The notes below the pieces were generated by a model, which was given only the letters and a program-made list of their open reading frames with translations, was not told where the DNA came from and did not search any database. Made by a program: the position numbers and the translations under genes. DNA of 64,000 nucleotides from Camelus dromedarius (Eukaryota). The stretch spans positions 14,632,001 to 14,696,000 of the forward strand of contig NC_087436.1 of assembly GCF_036321535.1 (NCBI RefSeq), read 5' to 3'. Below are positions 9,169 to 52,300 of this stretch, piece after piece. Position 1 is the stretch's first letter. Every line of letters begins with the position of its first letter.

Positions 9169-9225
<57 letters not shown>

Positions 9226-13439: not shown

Positions 13440-14250
13440 CAAACACGAGATAAGCAAGTACATACAAATTTCCTTTTCAACTGAAATGAGACCTTTCTTA
13501 GTCTACTCTTGATGTTCATAGAAGAAGATTGTTCAGATGTGTGAGAAGTTGAAAACTGCAGCATAATGTTCATTGCTTTTTGTAAATAGTAGAATATTCT
13601 TTTCTTCACAGAAGTCCAGAGCTTGCCTGGGCAGATCAATGAAACTCATCTTGAATGTATAAGACTACAGGTTCTTCCTTTTTTTCTTAAGTCACCTTCC
13701 CACAGTCAGAAGATTCAGAGAAGGAGTTCCTGCCCAGTGATACACGTGTGTTGAAAGAGAAGGAAAATCAGTTTGGTTTTGTTCTGCAGCTTCTCCAGGT
13801 GGTTTCCAATAAGACTTGAAACTTGCTGCTGTCTTCTGCACTCACGCCCGAGCAGCAGTGGAAACATTTCAACATTTCTTTTTTGTAACATGATGTTTTC
13901 CAAAAGTGTATTTTCCTTTTAAATCCAAGAATCTTCTTCCTTGAAGTCAAAAGTATTTTCTTCGTACCTTATGGAGACTGGAGAGTGTTAAATTGGCTAG
14001 TTTCTAGCCATTCTTCATCTTCAAAGTATTCAACAAAATCTTTCTTCTGTTGTCTTAAAAGGACCCCTTTCAGCTCAAATACCCTGCTGAGAACTTTTCC
14101 TCTGCTGAGCCACTGGATTTCTTTATGTAGTGGGAGATATTCTTTAAGTATTCCAGAATGAAATGACCTTTGTTCAATGAAGTTAACCATTTTGCAGTGT
14201 TTTTCAAAACATTTTTATTTCATCCCAAGTGTGTTTGACACCAGTCCATG
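13440..14250 (-). mobile_element. Decayed hAT (Charlie/Buster-type) transposase coding remnant; element may extend left to about 12430
   Basis: Collinear frameshifted minus-strand peptides: LHKEIQWLSRGKVLSRVFELK (cf. HTEVRWLSRGKVLxRxFEL), KILGFKRKIHFWK / NVEMFPLL...LIGNHLEKLQNK, and KAMNIMLQFSTSHTSEQSSSMNIKSRLR (hAT C-terminal dimerisation region). Confidence 0.88.
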
Positions 14251-14261
14251 GATGCCTTCAG

Positions 14262-14510
14262 TGTTAGTTCAGGTCCCCAGAGAAACAGATGTCAAGACAA
14301 GTTTTGAGGTGCAGGGAGCCCCCCATCCAGAGCTGGCTGTCAGAGCATTCCCACCAAGCTCAGTCGTTTGCTGGGTGGAGCCTGAGGAGGCACGGCTGGT
14401 GTGACTGCCATGGTAGATTTCCGGGTGAGGCTGCTGGAGGTGGTCTGGCAGCTCTGCTCGTCATAGCAGGTTCAGATATCAGAGCAAGTCCTCACTATGA
14501 CCACCACACC
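14262..14510 (-). mobile_element. MaLR (MLT1-like) LTR remnant
   Basis: tgttagttcaggtccccagagaaacagatgtcaagacaagttttgaggtgca ... caccaca matches MLT1-type termini. Confidence 0.65.
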
Positions 14511-20259: not shown

Positions 20260-20710
20260 AAGTAAACATGCTTGATATATAAAATTTGAGAAATATGGTA
20301 AAAAATAAATTAAAGCACCTATCTTACAACTGCCCAAATGCAGTGTATATTTTGAATTGTTGTCTTCTATCTAGTCCTTATACAGCTTGAAAGTCATGCT
20401 ATGATTATATAATTTCCTGCATTTTGCCCTTAGGGTAGTGTAATATAATCATCCATGTTTTGATTCACAGATTTTTTAAATGAACATCATGTTTAGGGAT
20501 TGCACCATAAATGTATTTAATTTCATGGGTTTCTTTGTCTTGAACATTTGGGTTTTGATTATTTGAATTTATGTTTATTTTTATTTTTTGCGTTTGTGAA
20601 TAAAGCAGCAGTGAGCATTCTCTGCATAATTTTTTTTCTGTTTTAGGATTACTTCCTTAGGATAGATTGCCAGAAGTGGAGTTACTGGGTCAGAGGGTAT
20701 GAACTTACGA
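20260..20710 (-). mobile_element. Ancient L1 (L1ME-like) 3' fragment hosting the 50-nt exon
   Basis: gaacatttgggtt...aataaagcagcagtgagcattct...ttccttaggatagattgccagaagtggagttactgggtcagagggtatg aligns by eye to the antisense L1 segments at about 9265-9390 and 47160-47292. Confidence 0.75.
20647..20696 (+). other. FBXW7: 50-nt non-coding 5'UTR exon of FBXW7alpha (upstream exon of circFBXW7)
   Basis: Acceptor ttttttttctgttttag|G, donor AGG|gtatga at 20697. 50+570 = 620 nt, the size I recall for human circFBXW7, and the junction-spanning ORF is exactly 185 aa. Confidence 0.88.
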
Positions 20711-21040: not shown

Positions 21041-21369
21041 TAAAATTTAAAATTGTTTTACAGGGTAGATTATGTTTTATTGGTCAAAGCAACTAAATTA
21101 AACTGTAACCTTTGTTCTAAAATTATTTTAAAAAGGAGATTAAAATAAAGCTGTTTACTATATGATTTTGTGTATATCTTTATAAAGTCTCATAACTTTT
21201 ATAATGTAAATGTTCTGTATTGATTTCCTAAAGAACATCTTAATGCCTCAGGGGCATCAGATACTTTTTATAATCTTTAATGAAATTTGGAATATAGACA
21301 TATAACATAAAAGTAAAAGATAATGTAGATTGTATAAACCTTTTTCTCGCCCCCCTTTTCCCCCTGCAG

Positions 21370-21939
21370 AATGTGAAAACCTTTGCATCTTCTGATAGTC
21401 TAGCCAAGGTTCAAGAAGTAGCAAGCTGGCTTTTGGAAATGAATCAGGAACTGCTCTCTGTGGGCAGCAAAAGACGACGAACTGGAGGCTCTCTGAGAGG
21501 GAACCCTTCCTCAAGCCAGGCAGATGAGGAACAGATGAATCGTGTGGTAGAGGAGGAACAGCAGCAGCAGCTAAGACAACAGGACGAGGAGCACACTGCG
21601 AGGAATGGTGAAGTCGTTGGAGCAGAACCTAGACCTGGTGACCAAAATGATTCCCAGCAAGGACAATTGGAAGAAAACAACAATCGGTTTATTTCCATAG
21701 ACGAGGACTCCTCGGGAAACCAAGAAGAACAAGAGGAGGATGAGGAGCATGCTGGCGAACAAGATGAGGAGGATGAAGAGGAGGAGGAAATGGACCAGGA
21801 GAGTGATGACTTTGATCAGTCTGATGACAGTAGCAGGGAAGATGAACATACACATAGTAACAGTGTCACAAACTCTAGTAGTATCGTGGACCTGCCTATT
21901 CACCAACTCTCCTCCCCGTTCTATACAAAGACAACAAAA
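21370..21939 (+). other. FBXW7: Full 570-nt FBXW7alpha exon (69 nt 5'UTR + 501 nt CDS)
   Basis: Strong acceptor cctttttctcgcccccttttccccctgcag|A (AG 21368-21369) and donor gtgagt at 21940. Confidence 0.95.
21439..21939 (+). CDS. FBXW7: FBXW7 alpha-isoform-specific first coding exon, coding part (codons 1-167; partial CDS that splices to shared exons beyond the window)
   Basis: Translates to MNQELLSVGSKRRRTGGSLRGNPSSSQADEEQ...DLPIHQLSSPFYTKTTK, the recognisable FBXW7alpha N-terminus (KRRR NLS, SQ motif, E/D/Q-rich tract). 501 nt = 167 codons, ending at phase-0 donor AAA|gtgagt (GT at 21940). Confidence 0.98.
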
Positions 21940-22054
21940 GTGAGTACATTTAGTCTGCTGTTCACCTGAGAAATTTGACGTATCTATATTAATTGTAGTG
22001 AAACTTTCCTCACAATCTTTGTATTACTGCAGAATTAATCTTCAGATGTGTAGT

Positions 22055-25030: not shown

Positions 25031-25070
<40 letters not shown>
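25031..25070. repeat. (TG)20 microsatellite with imperfect extension to about 25100
   Basis: Direct reading. Confidence 0.97.
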
Positions 25071-25071
<1 letters not shown>

Positions 25072-27474
25072 TGTGTATGTGTGTGTGTACACGTGTACGT
25101 GCTGTTGCTATGCTCTTTATTTGGAGGTCATTTGCTTTTATAAATATGGCAAGACGAATATAAAACTATTTGATTGCCAAGGCAGAGATGCCCTTCTGCA
25201 AAGTAGAATGTCAATATGAAGTTGGCCCATTTTCCTTTTTGTCCATTCTTGAAACGCTTCTTCTAGATTATTCTAATACTTTATTTTTCAACAACATTTT
25301 GAAAGCATCACATATTACTGTGTTACTTTAAAAGAAAATGTTAGTCACCCATGTTTATGAATCTTTTAAATACAGTAAATAGGGGGAAAGCTTTCACTAT
25401 TTCAAAGTTTATTTTGGAGCAGCTTTAAATTATTGATTATCATAAACATAAGACACTTTAAATTCTTAATACATAAGACACTTCTACAGACATTACCCTA
25501 AGCCACAATTTCTTTCAAGTCCTCTTAAACTGTGACTTTTGAGAAGAGTAGAGGTATAATAATTTATTTTCAGAATCCCATTTTTTTATATTAATGTAGG
25601 GTTAACCTTCTACATCTTACCCAGCACACCTTTCAAAAAAAATTTTTTTGGTAGTTTCTTAAACATACCCTTTGGACAGCTAGACTTACTTATTTGTCAT
25701 TACTGAACATGCTGTTTATGAAACTATGGTATTAAGGAGAAAAACCATTTTTGGTCCTTCATTGCATTGGTCTTTTTTTTTTTGAAAGCATATTGGAGAC
25801 TATCAAAACTCTTAGGACAATCTTTTTTCCCTATAGTCACCAAAGATTTATTCTAATGGGAGCCTATGGCAATAATATACAGTAGAAATTCCAGACTTTC
25901 TTAATGTTAAAAGTCAAGGGTCATGCCGGTCAAGAATTGGTGTTTATTAAGTCCATACTCTTTGCAAGTTCCCATGACGGTTAAGTAAGCAGAGGTTGCA
26001 GACAGGCCAAATGATTCACCCCAATATCACACTGTAAGTGGGAAGAGATTTTAAGCCAGATCTGCCTAATTTCAAAACAGCCCTCTTCTTTCCATGTGCT
26101 ATGCTGCCCCCTATAGTAGAAACATCACCAAACAAGATTTTCAATAGAAATGCAAGTCTATTTACGTTCTAGACTCTGGAGTGTGGTGACTTTCTAATAC
26201 CATACCACGTTTGAAATCAACAGAGCTATCCTTTAGAAAGTGCAGAGAGCTCAGTTAAGTGCTTTCCTTTGTAGTATTTAATGAATACTGAAGTTACAAG
26301 GACTCAAGGCTAAAGTTGTAACAGGAAGAAATGACAATGAAATTTGAGACAGGATAACAGATACCGCTCTCTCTGGAGTCCATCAAATGTGTTTCTTAAT
26401 TAGGAATTGTGTGCTAGCTATTTCTGTAAATTTGGCTCAATCTTTGCAAATTCTAAAGTCAACTTGCTTCCCCAGATAGGAATGCCCATCTCTTCAGTTT
26501 TTACACCCTATGTCAACAGTCTTATCATAATTAAGGACAAAAATATCTTGTTTTCTGAAGAGATGCCCAGCCCATGCTAAAGGCTCCTTTTCCATGTTTA
26601 ATGTAGAATATCAGCTCATTTTCTACTAAAATGAAAAGCAGATGAGATTACCATTAGGCCAGGTCTTGTATCCTCCTGATCTTCTCCTGAAGAGAACCAC
26701 ATTTGAGCACTGATCTCTGTTTCTTCCATATCAGTCATTAGTGTCTTCTATTTGTTCTCACATAACTTCATTCTTTACTTCAAATTAGTGTATTTTTTCC
26801 CATCCTGATTGTTAGATATCTCTTGGTAACTAAGCAGTTTTTAAAAAATCTTTTTTGCCTCAAATAAGAAATATATTTAGAAAAAAAATATACATATACA
26901 AATACATAGTCAAAGAAGCAGTATGTCTAGTGTCTAGTGTCTAGAGGCCTGAAACTTCTTCTTGTCTCTCGCTTCCAAACAATAGAGGAAGTAGGTACAA
27001 GAATCACTTGCCAATCAGGGAATCAAAATTACAGTTTTGTTTCTAGTCCACCATCCACCAACTACTCTCTTGAGCCAGAGCTACTGGGAAACTCTTCAGG
27101 ACCATGCGGGTAACATCTGCAATCTAATCAGGCTCTAAATTCTGTTGTATTTAGTTTAAGTTCTAGAGAGTGATGGCCATGTCAGGAAGCCCCTGGCCTT
27201 GTCTTGTTCCTGTAAGAGAAAGAATTTAGATTTGAACTCTGTTCAGTGTAGAGATGTCCAGAGAGCATAAAGTGCTGTATAAGGCATCAGTCATCTTGAA
27301 TTAAATCCACTAGGACACATAACCCAACAGGTAGCCGTGTCCCCTACATTTGTGAAGGAGGACAAACTAGAAAATTCACTCAGCCCAGTTTAACTCAATT
27401 TTAAGCATGTGGAGAGAGGAGAGTGAAAGTGGAGGGAAGAGGACACACTGGAGGAGATGAATTCTCCGCTAACA

Positions 27475-27680: not shown

Positions 27681-30599
27681 GCCTGTGACCTCATTTTGTC
27701 TGTCTGTCTCCTGTCCCTCATCCCTCATCTCACGCAATACACTTCATTTCCCACAGAAGATATCAGTGTATATACTTTTTATGACTGTTAATGTTCAGTC
27801 ATATCTCCCTCTAGTGGAAAAAGATATTAATGGAGAAATAGATAAATACTTTTAAAAGAGTGTGCAGGAGGATCGGGACATATGGTAATAAGCTGGGCCC
27901 ATTTCTAATAAAAATTAAAATATAACACATCTCCAAGGGGATGCTATGTACAGATCTTCCTACTTGATATGTATGTACCATTTCCTTCCATTAGATTTTG
28001 TCAGTTTCTTTAAATTTTCTTCTTCAGAAACATCTGTATACTTAAATGCTTTGTGAATTTTATAATTGGATGTCAAAATGAACTTTAGTATATGGTCAAT
28101 TTCTAATTAATTCCTATTAGTGCAGTTTAAAAAATACTTACTAACATTATTTTAAACCATAATAGCTCTAAATGTTGGTCATGTTTAAATCTATATCCTA
28201 TTCACTGCAAATAATTAAAAATTATTTTAATTATGGATTTTAATTATAGACCAAAAAAAATCTTCCCATAGAATGTTGGATTTCAAAATGTTTTATAGTG
28301 TTCCATTGATTTGTACTTTACACAGATGATAAACTTCTCTGAAATACCCACAAATACCACAAATAGTTATACTCAAAATGTTCCTGAGGCAGTCGCTTCA
28401 TATGTAGATAATTAAAATGAACTGCTCTTTATTAATGTTGTTTTTGCTGGTGATAGAGAAGATGCTATGGAGAAGATAAAGGAGATATCATGGTGGGTTC
28501 TCTTTTCACTTTGGTAGGTGACTCCAAAATTATGTATCCAGCTCCTGTCATTCACCCAAACCTCAGTCCTGCATTTCTGTCTATCTATTGGACATTGTCA
28601 CCTGAGCAGTCCACTGAAAACTAAAACTACCTTTCCTTTCTTCCTACCAATTTTTTATTTTCCTTTTAGATTTTCTAGTCTCTTAGTATTCTGGTCTTCT
28701 CGTCATTTGGTGGGAAAATGGTTTGACCTTTTCTTTATCCAAGCCTATGGGTCTGCTGAAAGAGTTTAACAGATGAGAACTCTTGATCTTCAGTTTTCTT
28801 ACCCTCAGGCACTTGTGAGATAAAAATTGGAGAGTCAGTGTTTAAAAATTAAAGGGCATCTTTGCTTAGGTTTCTGTTTCAATAGGCTGTAATGCCATGT
28901 CCTGGACAGTGTGTTGGCAGTATGAATGATTGGATGAATTTTTTAAACTGAATTTTTAGTTCAGTAACCTCAATATAAATATCGAGTGCCCCATTTCCCA
29001 CTGATGAAGCCAAATTCCATAGGTGGACATTTGAAGTCTGTTATTGTCTTACCAGTTTCGTTTTAGCTGATTCTATCTCCATTCCTCCACTTCCTTTTAA
29101 TAAATCCTCCCCCCGCCAGGCAGATCCTTCAAAATCCAGGCCAAATTCCATCTCTATCTTTACAGCTTCCTAGAATTAGAAGATTCAATTCCTTGAACCC
29201 ATTGTTGGTTCTCTACGTTGTGCAGTTCATTTGGTATTATCTTGTGACTTTGGGGGTAAGTTTTGTCTTGTTGACGTTTAATTCTTTTACCTTTTCTGAA
29301 CAGTAGAAATTTGATATATTTGTCTCTAGTGCTGATTCAGGTTGAAAGTTGAAATTTCACAAATTGTAGTGTGAGCGATTCTCATTTCACCTTATAAGAT
29401 GTACCCAAGCTGGACTATAAATTATAAATAGGCATGCCATTTAAGTTCAGTTTAAAACTCAGATTTTCAATATAAAGATGATTACATTGAGGAATATTAT
29501 AATAACATAGCAGTTTGAGAGTAAAATTCCCCTGAGGAGAAGTTAAAAACCACAATTTAAGAACCATGTTGCTAAGATACAGAAATCAATTGAAGGCAAC
29601 TCATACAGTCATTAAAAATCATATTTTAAAGGAAATTTAATAATAGGTAAAGCTTACAAATACAATATTTACTAAAAATATAAATGTGATCCTGACTATG
29701 AAATAAACTTACAATAATTCCCTCCCCCATATATATGCATGAGAAAAGATCAGAAAGAAACCAAATGTTAGGAGTTACCTCTGAATGTGGTTGAATTATT
29801 TTTATTTTTTTCTTACATGCTTTTCACAATTTCCCAAGCTTGTTACAACAGGTATATATTACTGTTACTTATTAGAAAAAAAAAAACTGTATCTACTAGA
29901 AACTAATTCTGACATACTTAGTCTTTTGATAACTTTCACAATGTATAATACTCAGTGGAAGACTGGATAAAAAGACACCTTTCACAAGGAAGGGCATTAT
30001 ATAATGATCTCTTCGTGAACATGCAGCTGAGCATAGTGGAAGAAAGCAATGCAGCCTTTAACAGTTCAATGTGTAGCCAATTCCTCACATCTCCATGACT
30101 CAGGTGCCATCCTAGCAATTCTCTAAGGTCAACTTAACCACATTATTAGAAGAGCAGTAGTTAGCATGGTGGTGTCTTTGTTTTTAAGACATTTATTTAA
30201 TATGTGGTTTCTTTAGAGAGTTACTTAAGAGTAGCCTTGACAGCACTTTTGGCTCTCCCTAAAACACGAGTGTCTTTCATTTAAAAATCATTCTGTGAGC
30301 AATTTCAGAGTCTGTCTTTTAAAGTATAATTCTAAAGTGCTTTACCAGGAAGTCACCAGTGCTCTCCCTCCCCTTCCCTATTCCCAACCTCTCATTTCTT
30401 CAAACTAATTAATATATTTAAACTGCTTAGGTTTTCCATCCTAATTTTAAGTCTCCTGAGATAGACTCCGAAGGGGACCTTTGAGATCACCAAGTCCAAA
30501 CCTGCTTTATCAAGAGACTCAAGCTTGAAAATGAAGTCATCACTAGGGCATACTACAGTGTGAAGCAGCATTATATTTTTAGACAGTTCTTCATGTTGA

Positions 30600-37922: not shown

Positions 37923-37937
37923 CACACACACGCACGC

Positions 37938-37985
<48 letters not shown>
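37923..37985. repeat. (CA)n microsatellite with CG interruptions
   Basis: Direct reading. Confidence 0.97.
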
Positions 37986-37987
<2 letters not shown>

Positions 37988-38089
37988 TTTCCTAATACAA
38001 TATAAAAGGAATTTCTCACATGGGGCTTCATGATGAAGTAGACTGTGCCCTCAATAAGGTAACATCTAACAAACGCACCAGTGCTTATC

Positions 38090-40849: not shown

Positions 40850-40933
40850 GGAGGTCATGACATCTTTGCTCTTAGAACTGTTTTTGTTTTCATTTGTAGA
40901 GGAAAATCAAGCTCATTAAAACAGATCCCATTT

Positions 40934-40942
40934 ACACACACA

Positions 40943-40985
<43 letters not shown>
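40934..40985. repeat. (CA)n microsatellite
   Basis: Direct reading, one interruption. Confidence 0.97.
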
Positions 40986-40987
<2 letters not shown>

Positions 40988-41169
40988 CTTATGTAGTACT
41001 TTATTTCTGTTATCCTAGCAAACTTACATATCTGAAACATACGTAATAAAAAGTGAATCTCCAAACAACTAGATTTAGAAAGTAATACAACTAGGTTAGG
41101 CCTAACATTCTATAGAATAGAATATATGTTCTATTACAAATCAGGAATTAGATATACTAGGGTAAAAAA

Positions 41170-46724: not shown

Positions 46725-47550
46725 TTAGTTGTTTATTTTTTTTATTGAAACAATTTTTATTATAATTAAATACCTATAACATAAAATTTACTATTTTAAT
46801 CATGTTTAAGTGTATAATTCAGTGATGTTAAGTATATTCACAATGTTGTGCAACCATTACCACTGTCTCCAGAAATTTTTTCTTTTCCAGCAGAAATTCT
46901 GTACCCATTAAGCACTAACTCCTCATTCCTTTCTCCCTCTAGCTCCTGGCAACCATCATTCTACTTTCTGTCTATAAATTTAACTACTCTAGGTACCTCA
47001 TATAGGTGAAATCATACAAAATTTATCCTTTTTTGACTAACTTATTACACTTAGCATTATGTCTTTAAGGTTCATCCACGTTGTGTCAGAATTTCCTTCC
47101 TTTTTAGGCTGAATAATATCCCACTGTATGTATGTACCACATTTTTTTCCATCACTGGTTACTTAGGTTGTTTCCATTTCTTGACTATTGTGAATAATGC
47201 TGCTTTGAACATGGTTATACAAATATCTGTGTGTGTGAGCCCTTCTTTCAGTTCTTTTGGTTGTATACCCAAAAGTGGAATTGCTGGATCATGTAGTAAT
47301 TTTTTTGAGGGAACTATATTTTCCATAGTAGCTACATCCATTTTGCATTCCCACCAACAGTGCACAAGGGTTCTAGTTTCTCTCCATCTCTGCCAATGCT
47401 TATTTTTCTCTGTGTGTGTGTTTAAATAATAGCCATATTAATAGGTATGCATTGTGGTTCTGGTTTTGATTTGCATTTCCCTAATGAGTAGTGATACTGA
47501 GCATCTTTATGTGTGCATATTGATCATTTATATATCTTCTTTGGAGAAAT
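46725..47550 (-). mobile_element. LINE-1 3' end (L1MA/MB-like)
   Basis: Minus-strand peptide HCWWECK...[17 protein letters not shown]...MFKAALFTIVKKWKQPK (ORF2 C-terminus) plus 3'UTR. Confidence 0.94.
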
Positions 47551-49161: not shown

Positions 49162-49308
49162 ATGTCAAAACCGGGAAAAGCTACTCTAAACCATGGCTTG
49201 GTTCCTGTTGATCTTAAAAGTGCAAAAGAGCCTCTACCACATCAAACTGTGATGAAGATATTTAGCATTAGCATCATTGCCCAAGGCCTCCCTTTTTGTC
49301 GAAGACGG
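49162..49308 (+). CDS. FBXW7: FBXW7 gamma-isoform-specific first coding exon (49 codons; partial CDS)
   Basis: MSKPGKATLNHGLVPVDLKSAKEPLPHQTVMKIFSISIIAQGLPFCRRR, then phase-0 donor CGG|gtaagt at 49309. Matches the known gamma N-terminus. Confidence 0.96.
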
Positions 49309-52300
49309 GTAAGTCTCACACGTTTGAAAAATGGAAATCTTTATTTAAATGAACTGCTTCTGCCTCCTTTGGTGGAGAAATGCTTCAACTTTCAATTGCT
49401 GCTTACAACAGAAACTATCAGTGCATTATATAGCCAGTGAAAACTTATCTAAATGATAGTTTTAATAATATGACAGAGAACCTTGAGGGCAAGGTTACCC
49501 AATTCACCTTTTTGTCTCTTTCATTTATTTTTATGATATTAGAATTCTTTAAACTTACTTAAAGTTGGCAAATGTAAAAAGTAGGTTTTGAAATATGTTG
49601 GCAAATACTAAACACCCAAATTCGTGGTTTTTATTTTGTGGTAAAAGCAAAAAAGCTGATGGTACTGTCCTTATGCGTGGGAATTGCAACATTTAGCTCT
49701 TTTTTCAAGAGTTTATCTGGTACTTTAAACTGTAATATTTTCAAATCACTATTTCTTAAATTCAGACTTAATAGAGATATTACTTTTGCTGTTATACAAA
49801 ATAAAAATAGCATGCTATTGTGTGGCAGTTACGAATCAGTTTATATATAGACAATCCTGAACTAACAAACATTTTGGAGAACTCGTGCTTATCTGTAATC
49901 AGGTTATGATCTATTGAATGTTTTTCAGGATGACATTCTCCTACTCCCCACCAAGTTTTGACCTTGTTAATATTAACAGTTTTGTTATATTTTCTGAGTT
50001 ACTTGGTATTGCCATTTTGAATTACTAGCTAAAGCGATATATTTTTAGATCTTAAATGTGTTTAGTATCCTGAACACACTAAACCAAAAAAATATAAAAT
50101 AAAAAACCTGTTGGAGACTGAGTATTTGCATATATCAGTGCTATTAGTGTTTTAGTTCCCTTTTTAATTCCCCACCCCCTTGCTTTTTTTTTTTTTTTAA
50201 CTAAAAGGGAAACATTCTATTAATCAAGTAGGTTAACTCCTAACTCTCTAACTCCTAAGAAATCTTCCTCCTCCTTAGTAAAGAGAATCTTCTATTTGCT
50301 GGGACTTAAATAGCTTTTGTGAAAATATGTTTTCTAGTTACCTTAGTTCTTTTTGAATTGTTTCTGCTTCTACTCTAAATGAGTGGTGGCCATGTTGAAT
50401 ACATTTTGAGTGAGTTTTAAATGTAATACAGTTTCAACATTGAAAATAGAATATAAGTATCTCTGTCACACTCCTATTTTCTTCTTTACTATGTTTTCAA
50501 TAAGTGTTTCTTTTATTTTGTCTTCTTTCACTTTGTCACTTTTCTAACTTCTGAATGAGGTCTGTGCTCTGATTTAAGCATTTACACAGAGGCCTCTAGT
50601 AGCTTTAAAGTCATTACTAAACTAATTTATTGTTTTAATACTTCTATGAAAGAAAATACCAATAGAAGTAAATTTTTGAATTAAGGAAAAGAAATGTAGA
50701 TTTTTTTTAATTAAAGAGTTAAGATACTAACACTCAAGATAATTTTGTTCTTTCTTATTGAATATCTCTGATGGCCTTAAGTACAGTACATGGTAGATTA
50801 TGTATGTTTTCTGTCTTCATCTTTTTAACAACTACATGAAACTTAAAAGGCTCAGGAGCAGATTCTATGAGAAAAATTAATAGAGAACTTCAAGGCTTTC
50901 CCTCAGGGCTTCCTAGGGTCACTGTTCAGTTTGACTTTTCTAAGTTACTGTTATATTAAATTATAGCCTTGCATTGATAATAATGTAATATAATAATATA
51001 TTAATGCAATGTAATAATATTTGAAAAAATAAAATTCAAACTAGAACGTTTGTGGGAAGATAGTTAAAAAATAAAATTAACACATTGAGTTTTAGACTGC
51101 CTGCCAATACTTTACTATTGCATAACTCATTGACTCTGACTACTAGAAATGTTAGAGGGATAGTGTAATTATATCCTCTCCCCTCCTTTTTGCAGCTGGT
51201 TAATTTAGGTAGCTTTAAATTGATTCACATGCTCTTTGTTATTTAATTTACTAACCTTCCTTTGGTAATGTTAGTTAGACATTTTTAGTGCATTTTTATC
51301 AAAGATTTAAAGAAGACTTTTTTTGTGTGATATGTAGTTAATCATATTTTGTATCTAATATCTAATATGCCTTTCACATTAGGCATGTTTAGCTTGTTTG
51401 AGTCAGACTGTTACACACTGACAACGAAGTATACAGACTTCTCTATTTTTTAGGCCATTTTTTCCCTACCAAGTAGTGAGCTAATATATAGTGATCTCTC
51501 ACAAGACTGTATGTAGTCTTGACCTATTAAAATTTGAAAAACGTGTTATTGCCTCTCCATCCATCATAGGGGTTGATCCATTTAATGTTACACAATGAAA
51601 TAATTTTGAAAATTTTGAAAAATTCTGTAAAATGGTTGTTATAACTACAACTTCAGTTTGTAGCTCTTCAAATGTTTTCAGGAAATTTATTTACTTCACT
51701 GTTAAGTATAATATTAGTCCTGGTAGTCTATGTTATTAGCATGTGGATTATTTTGGTTTCTCATCAGAGATATATAAGTCCTATAGGTAATTCTTAGTTT
51801 CAGGAATATTTGAGAATACTTGTTGAGTATATAACTTTATTCTAAAAGAACTGATTGTCCTTTAGAGGAAGAGAAGATTTATAGGAACTCACTTACATAA
51901 AATCACTGGAAAATTGTTTTATTTTTCTTTGAAGTTGAAATAGCTAATTAGGATAATACTGTATTTCCTAAATCCTAAGGTACGTCATTATTCTACATTT
52001 TAAACACATAAGTAAGGGTACATCTTGATGGAATTTCATAGCTTATCCTACAGCATTTTTTCTTTCTAGTAATAAGAGAAGGAATGTACTTTATGATTAA
52101 TAGTAGTGTGTTAAAGAATTTACTTCAATGCTTAAACCTCATTTATTAAGTCATTTTGGTTTTGTTTGGAGACTTTTAAACATTTAAAATATTCTCACAA
52201 AGTTATCCTTCAATGTTCATATTTTGGTAGAAATTTCCAAATGACATACAACTAGTGGTTTATATAGGGCTTTTAAAGATGTCTGCTTGATTGTGCTGGT

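Follow-up and report, generated by a model that had tools for sequence, protein, structure and literature searches.

MYC, cyclin E, JUN and NOTCH are substrates that FBXW7 degrades, and where it acts is set by N-termini specific to each isoform. Three isoforms are named in the accessible part of a review (PMC8388169), and human 5' RACE with 115 clones from one cell line gave seven leaders and, in the accessible text of that report, no new ORF (PMC3498124). The gene also yields human circ-FBXW7 (hsa_circ_0001451), a 620-nt circle of exons 3 and 4 for which a product of 185 aa has been described (PMC6019044), and circFBXW7 is the only circle listed at the donor of the alpha exon in the available portions of PMC10135897 and PMC5673025. 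Translation of FBXW7-185aa is disputed, with Ribo-seq counts of 0 in frame and 1 out of frame and no peptides in Table S7 of PMC6487579. In addition, FBXW7 has a row in the PhyloSET collection of candidate extensions, in which the human stretch before the alpha AUG has a PhyloCSF score over 120 mammals of 52.0 originally (PMC9789052 supplement row) and of 59.0 after recalculation (PMC10764858 supplement row). The Ribo-seq and proteomics fields of this row are empty (PMC9789052), and the gene appears in the supplements of both papers with 0 mentions in the main text. FBXW7 is absent from one supplement of a study that surveyed translated 5' UTRs by proteomics (PMC11317171), and the accessible part of PMC12045569 names it only as a ligase for SUFU.

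We analysed a window of 64,000 nucleotides of Camelus dromedarius DNA, and all positions below are counted within this whole stretch. The translation of one of its exons matches a Camelus ferus model with 100% identity over the exon, which identifies the locus as FBXW7. This alpha exon (21370..21939, + strand) is 570 nt long, its 190 codons are open in frame 0, and both ends are in phase 0. It is preceded by a splice acceptor with a polypyrimidine tract and a CAG end (21350..21369, +) and followed by the donor GTGAGT (21940..21945, +), which is common to linear splicing and to both circles considered below. The annotated alpha start (21439..21441, +; context ttggaa ATG aat) is in frame with the preceding 69 nt. 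Frame 0 of the exon contains no stop, and the other two frames contain 9 and 21. When the exon was closed in silico, the resulting 570-nt circle was divisible by three and had no stop in frame. The first-pass annotation had described the stop-free 570-nt exon, the in-frame 69 nt and the phase-0 donor, and all of these were reproduced on recomputation, with AG/GT bounds confirmed; its statement that the alpha donor is the back-splice donor of circFBXW7 also agrees with the human coordinates. It had overlooked a 50-nt upstream exon (20647-20696) and an out-of-frame start-stop, ATG TGA (21371..21376, +). This start-stop sits 68 nt before the alpha ATG, is found in every leader using this acceptor and may damp alpha translation.

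The exon arithmetic alone is unremarkable; the conservation of the 23 codons before the alpha ATG is not. When sequences are shuffled by mononucleotide or by dinucleotide, 69 nt are stop-free in a given frame in 18% and 22% of cases, respectively, and the share among all 69-mers of the window is likewise 22%; multiplication by 1/3 for length leaves about 6-7% by chance, near the 8% of AUG circRNAs that have infinite ORFs according to PMC6487579. Infinite ORFs are a known, chance-level class of circRNA. The 23-codon leader (21370..21438, +) is annotated as UTR, is conserved as protein and forms most of a predicted helix. Among 105 longer homologues, the leader motif was found in all 81 whose sequence extends upstream beyond the alpha Met (the remaining 24 begin with this Met), and among 258 stored proteins it ends the upstream part in 138 of 138, in protein sets that are biased, as species with a closed frame yield no leader protein, and whose sequences are related and non-independent. 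When mean identity to the window was compared for 46 hand-picked proteins, the leader surpassed the annotated part of the exon in each group: 0.98 versus 0.96 in eutherians (12 proteins), 1.00 versus 0.87 in a monotreme (1), 1.00 versus 0.77 in both squamates (6) and crocodilians (2), 0.96 versus 0.76 in birds (10), 0.84 versus 0.44 in teleosts (14) and 0.57 versus 0.44 in a sawfish (1). From mammals to teleosts, leader identity thus spans 84-100%, against 44-96% for the annotated coding part, and the replacements in distant species are conservative (Val/Ile, Glu/Asp and Thr/Ser). Conservation of the open 69-nt frame, which the first-pass annotation had raised, was borne out at the protein level across this range. 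A search for orthologous DNA in metagenome contigs gave 599 pattern matches and 0 confirmed cases.

In 33 of the 105 homologues, the leader directly follows a conserved segment of about 51 residues that starts with M-S-K-S-M-C-G-C-G-C (MCGCGC), and all of these joined forms are automatic gene models, possibly projected from one another. In an enlarged set of 327 stored proteins (homologues, region searches and cluster look-ups), this Cys exon occurs in 130 proteins, 79 of which join the leader directly. When the join is lacking, 45 of 51 proteins continue with Lys-Val at the exon end, which fits read-through of a phase-0 GT donor; the flanking read-through differs by group, yet Lys-Val marks the exon end in both mammal-like and teleost-like sequences. 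At the protein level, with the donor deduced in this way, the Cys exon is AUG-bearing, open and in phase with the alpha exon. Its carriers include bats, seals, dog, horse, sheep, gibbon, monotremes, lizards, a snake, turtles and crocodilians, as well as birds, frogs, teleosts, bamboo shark and sawfish, and 35 of its residues stand at the start of the Camelus ferus model P0002. Within the 64-kb window, tblastn and motif searches for the Cys exon gave a best E of 0.065, which places it more than 21 kb upstream. In sequences with residues upstream, which are related and not independent, Met5 is kept in 100/100 and Met1 in 95/100; Cys6, 8 and 10 are kept in 117-119 of 120, and Cys25 and 26 in 127-129 of 130. 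No named human or mouse protein with the Cys exon was among the proteins found, and the join of Cys exon and leader was seen in 0 of 14 homologues found only in Logan, which have other leader exons or none.

Several individual models deserve comment. The internal exons of P0002, through which its Cys exon is joined, were rejected as ab initio artefacts, one of them duplicating another, and P0264, named as Lampetra planeri, is teleost-like and was left out of the dating of the Cys exon. The models from camel and gibbon have the third Met as their first residue, lack the first 16 residues including the Cys-Gly-Cys head and show changes at conserved sites; judging from these models, some mammals may be losing the Cys head, or it may merely be unannotated. 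In marmot P0290 and elephant P0124, the Cys exon is entered near its 3' end from another leader exon, which suggests an internal acceptor and a position of the Cys exon downstream of that leader exon. Short models of 245-300 aa (P0135, P0157, P0162 and P0259-P0262, from horse, ducks, manakin, seal, turtle and snake) contain the extension and the alpha exon, lack the F-box and WD40 parts and have unrelated C-termini.

We propose that the 69 nt are very probably the coding sequence of a longer, linear FBXW7-alpha isoform. The upstream exon, more than 21 kb away, would supply an AUG and about 47-51 codons (M-S-K-S-M-C-G-C-G-C ... P-R-Q-P-K) and would end at a phase-0 donor, and its splicing to 21370 would allow read-through of the 23 codons into the alpha ATG. 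On such a minor transcript, initiation at Met1 or Met5 would extend alpha by about 70-74 residues, and the predicted length of the long protein in amniotes is about 775-785 aa. In the common transcripts, different leader exons would precede a start at the alpha ATG, which accounts for the annotation of the leader as UTR, and since the exon is open and in phase 0 at both ends, an endless ORF in a single-exon circle would result as a by-product. For camel, we infer the splice, the GT donor and translation. Counting against this isoform are the automatic origin of the joined models, the Logan-only homologues that lack the join, the seven human RACE leaders that added no ORF, the empty fields of the PhyloSET row, the supplement of the 5' UTR survey in which FBXW7 is absent and, for its structure, a mean pLDDT of 53. 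The long isoform is already in automatic annotation, and the leader is already in the published PhyloSET table as a non-AUG candidate. Our literature search, which was thin on subscription journals, found the long isoform, the extension peptides and the transcript identifier nowhere described; the term 'FBXW7-delta' denotes knockout alleles in the paper checked.

The window also encodes the two-exon circle. The 50-nt exon, bounded by AG/GT (20647..20696, +), forms with the alpha exon a 620-nt circle, whose junction-spanning ORF of 185 aa takes its last codon and stop from the ATG-TGA at 21371-21376, and the residues at its junction agree with those of the human peptide given in PMC6487579 Table S7. 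A TAG in the small exon (20658-20660, +) is in frame with the leader. A possible internal donor, GTCAGA (20689..20694, +), would leave 42 nt of the small exon and give a stop-free two-exon circle of 612 nt; by its sequence, this form would have its back-splice junction in common with the abundant circle and is a better candidate for rolling-circle translation than the single exon. The tenrec model P0258 has a 14-residue version of the 50-nt exon. A third human circle at the alpha donor (hg19 chr4:153332454-153391140, 92 reads) starts at an exon further upstream.

Other features of the window can be noted here. The stretch at 20575-20700, which holds the 50-nt exon and its flank, resembles a repeat at 47168-47291 (63% over 125 nt, E 6e-6). 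In antisense, both read as a peptide that we take to be like the end of LINE-1 ORF2, and a Pfam search with this peptide gave no match; given the LINE-1 label, the unique tail of FBXW7-185aa would derive from an old antisense L1 fragment. Positions 49222-49311 match the cod model P0168 in its alternative N-terminus (67% over 30 aa) and, on this match, are probably the beta first exon. Positions 28518-28631 match (74%) a 38-residue cassette that follows the alpha exon in the cetacean models P0144 and P0146. At 14253-14390 and 13585-13963 lie homologues of upstream exons of bat models (P0009, P0010, P0014, P0019 and P0026), parts of which contain stops here; from sequence comparison, these bat-type exons are lineage-specific leaders and are not deeply conserved.

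The open exon had initially been ascribed to the circle itself, and this reading can be weighed with human data. The single-exon circle is listed in human, in traces: a circle with matching ends (hg19 chr4:153332454-153333024) has 33 ENCODE junction reads (PMC6487579 Table S2) and 7 reads in a second data set (Table S4), as found by the catalogue check that the first-pass annotation had suggested, and it is catalogued there as an AUG circRNA. The two-exon circle has 35,965 junction reads with two programs summed (Table S7) and is absent from the 10 FBXW7 rows among those listed in Table S2; in human, the single-exon circle is about 500-1000x rarer, as estimated from two tables with different counting. 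That this circle is translated endlessly into acidic concatemers that matter, with selection holding the frame open for that purpose, is extremely improbable in our view. The arithmetic holds, the circle is listed in two human data sets, other endogenous circles have been shown to undergo rolling-circle translation as reporters (10.1101/473207), and infinite ORFs were excluded from the global analyses that gave no indication of circle translation (PMC6487579). On the other hand, 33 reads stand against 35,965, of the three concatemers that were tested in other work, two soon underwent degradation (10.1101/473207), and the reported IRES, the 120 nt before the ATG (PMC6019044), would run across both exons, so that a single-exon circle would hold only part of it. 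Comparison of the upstream with the downstream introns, with low complexity masked, gave no bracketing inverted repeat at E<=0.01, a feature frequent in circRNA loci but dispensable, and the 25 longest reverse-complement pairs around the exon consist only of TG/CA microsatellites. Such microsatellites flank the exon in opposite orientation (9171-9223, 25031-25088, 37923-37993 and 40933-41000) and were rejected as circularisation elements, being too distant and too common. The back-splice junction peptide was found in 0 of 317 stored predicted proteins, which is a weak test; only this peptide can separate the circle from the linear isoform, as mass-spectrometry peptides inside the exon cannot. 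A circle needs only the absence of stops and not near-invariant leader residues. What is conserved is the amino-acid sequence, which is consistent with linear splicing from an AUG exon located upstream, and the circle is not supported as the account of the open frame. The endless ORF stands as arithmetic, and a meaningful product is not supported, in view of the read counts and the chance-level class. Our literature search, with the same thin coverage, likewise found an FBXW7 rolling circle nowhere described, in line with the first-pass annotation, which knew of no description; the circle itself was already catalogued and its class was known.

Two further readings concern the linear RNA. The leader could be translated on the common transcripts from a near-cognate start, either the GTG of codon 2 or a CTG or GTG in an upstream leader, giving a short non-AUG extension. 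This would be compatible with the long isoform, and we regard it as very unlikely. It is consistent with the inclusion of FBXW7 among the 60 PhyloSET genes, with the A at -3 of the GTG at 21373 in its genomic context and with several Logan ORFs that are open upstream through leader exons. However, the PhyloSET table, as far as it is accessible, has no Ribo-seq or proteomic entry for it, 14 of the 81 leaders have Ala at the GTG codon, the in-frame TAG lies upstream of the leader in transcripts that contain the 50-nt exon, and a conserved AUG exon explains the constraint without a non-AUG start. Alternatively, the 69 nt may be conserved as an RNA or splicing element or as an IRES, with an incidental open frame and with extended models that are annotation artefacts. 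An open frame is expected in about 7% of cases by chance, the region is part of the reported IRES (PMC6019044) and of leaders that tune translation (PMC3498124), and the join of Cys exon and leader is seen here in gene models. This reading is nevertheless highly improbable in view of the positive PhyloCSF (PMC9789052, PMC10764858), the conservative replacements in distant species and a distant Cys exon that keeps its AUG, open frame and matching phase from teleosts to mammals while the surrounding sequence diverges.

For the long isoform, we also considered what the extension may do. In an AlphaFold model of horse P0135, made with an alignment of 39 sequences, helices span residues 11-19, 35-44 and 59-75, and the model is confident only at residues 61-80 (pLDDT 80-84; mean 53). 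Residues 12-23 are basic and amphipathic, with a hydrophobic moment of 0.76, and the extension therefore has both an N-terminal Cys cluster and a basic amphipathic helix. By analogy, and given the isoform, the two together would form an S-acylation anchor that holds an SCF receptor on membranes and overrides nuclear import, for which we see somewhat less than an even chance. If translation began at Met5, a Cys would come to lie at the N-terminus and might act as an oxygen-sensitive degron; again given the isoform, a Cys/Arg N-degron created by Met removal seems unlikely to us. Alternatively, the Cys residues of the extension would bind a metal or a partner. Pfam has no family for the extension, with only sub-threshold matches to acidic regions, and the ESM Atlas gave no usable match to residues 1-85. 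With the 300-residue model, in which the extension was not folded alone, Foldseek gave 0 matches at E<=0.001, and the best Z in VIA-align was 3.8, nearly all of it on the Gln/Glu helix.

The extension has been retained since the shark-mammal split and is conserved above the annotated alpha N-terminus, which points to a function; this function is unassayed because alpha constructs begin at the internal Met. With the Cys exon, the PhyloSET row gains a concrete AUG-based reading. Our results also advise caution, as the hidden coding of a linear product can leave a circle stop-free as a side effect, and the rolling-circle idea itself is of little weight, concerning a known class and a rare circle. 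More tentatively, jawed vertebrates including humans may make a fourth FBXW7 isoform in particular tissues, with the Cys-rich head serving as a membrane anchor or an oxygen-sensitive Cys N-degron and with its exon deep in the human-annotated 5' intron. We consider this whole proposal doubtful; if true, the tumour suppressor FBXW7 would gain an unstudied compartment or oxygen switch, and variants in that intron would have been overlooked.

Lck, GAP43 and RGS4 have N-terminal Cys clusters that serve as membrane anchors or Cys N-degrons. The extension is like them in that a basic amphipathic helix comes after Cys residues among its first ten positions, which is a resemblance in features only; it differs in the absence of Gly2, which precludes myristoylation. 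Compared with the rolling-circle circRNAs circPSAP, circPFAS and circABHD12 (10.1101/473207) and with AUG circRNAs (PMC6487579), the 570-nt circle is likewise divisible by three and stop-free, and it is unlike circPSAP, circPFAS and circABHD12 in its trace abundance and in an open frame that very probably has a linear cause. With circ-FBXW7 and FBXW7-185aa, the window shares the donor, the 620-nt two-exon circle and the 185-aa ORF with matching junction residues, whereas circ-FBXW7 differs from the single-exon circle in that it contains the 50-nt exon, terminates and does not translate the leader in frame. The PhyloSET extensions (PMC9789052, PMC10764858) cover the same human stretch with positive PhyloCSF, and a coding signature upstream of the annotated alpha AUG is present here in both the leader conservation and the published PhyloCSF. 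The PhyloSET entry differs in that it is filed as a non-AUG candidate and the upstream AUG exon lies outside it; this in-frame exon is present in many vertebrates including camel, whereas a non-AUG extension presupposes that an in-frame upstream AUG is lacking. Finally, in the accessible descriptions given for FBXW7's alpha, beta and gamma forms (PMC8388169, PMC3498124), the N-terminus is determined by a 5' coding exon that is specific to the isoform and is joined by splicing to the shared exons, and the long form would be built likewise, except that its Cys exon would extend alpha instead of replacing its N-terminus, which puts it outside the three named isoforms.
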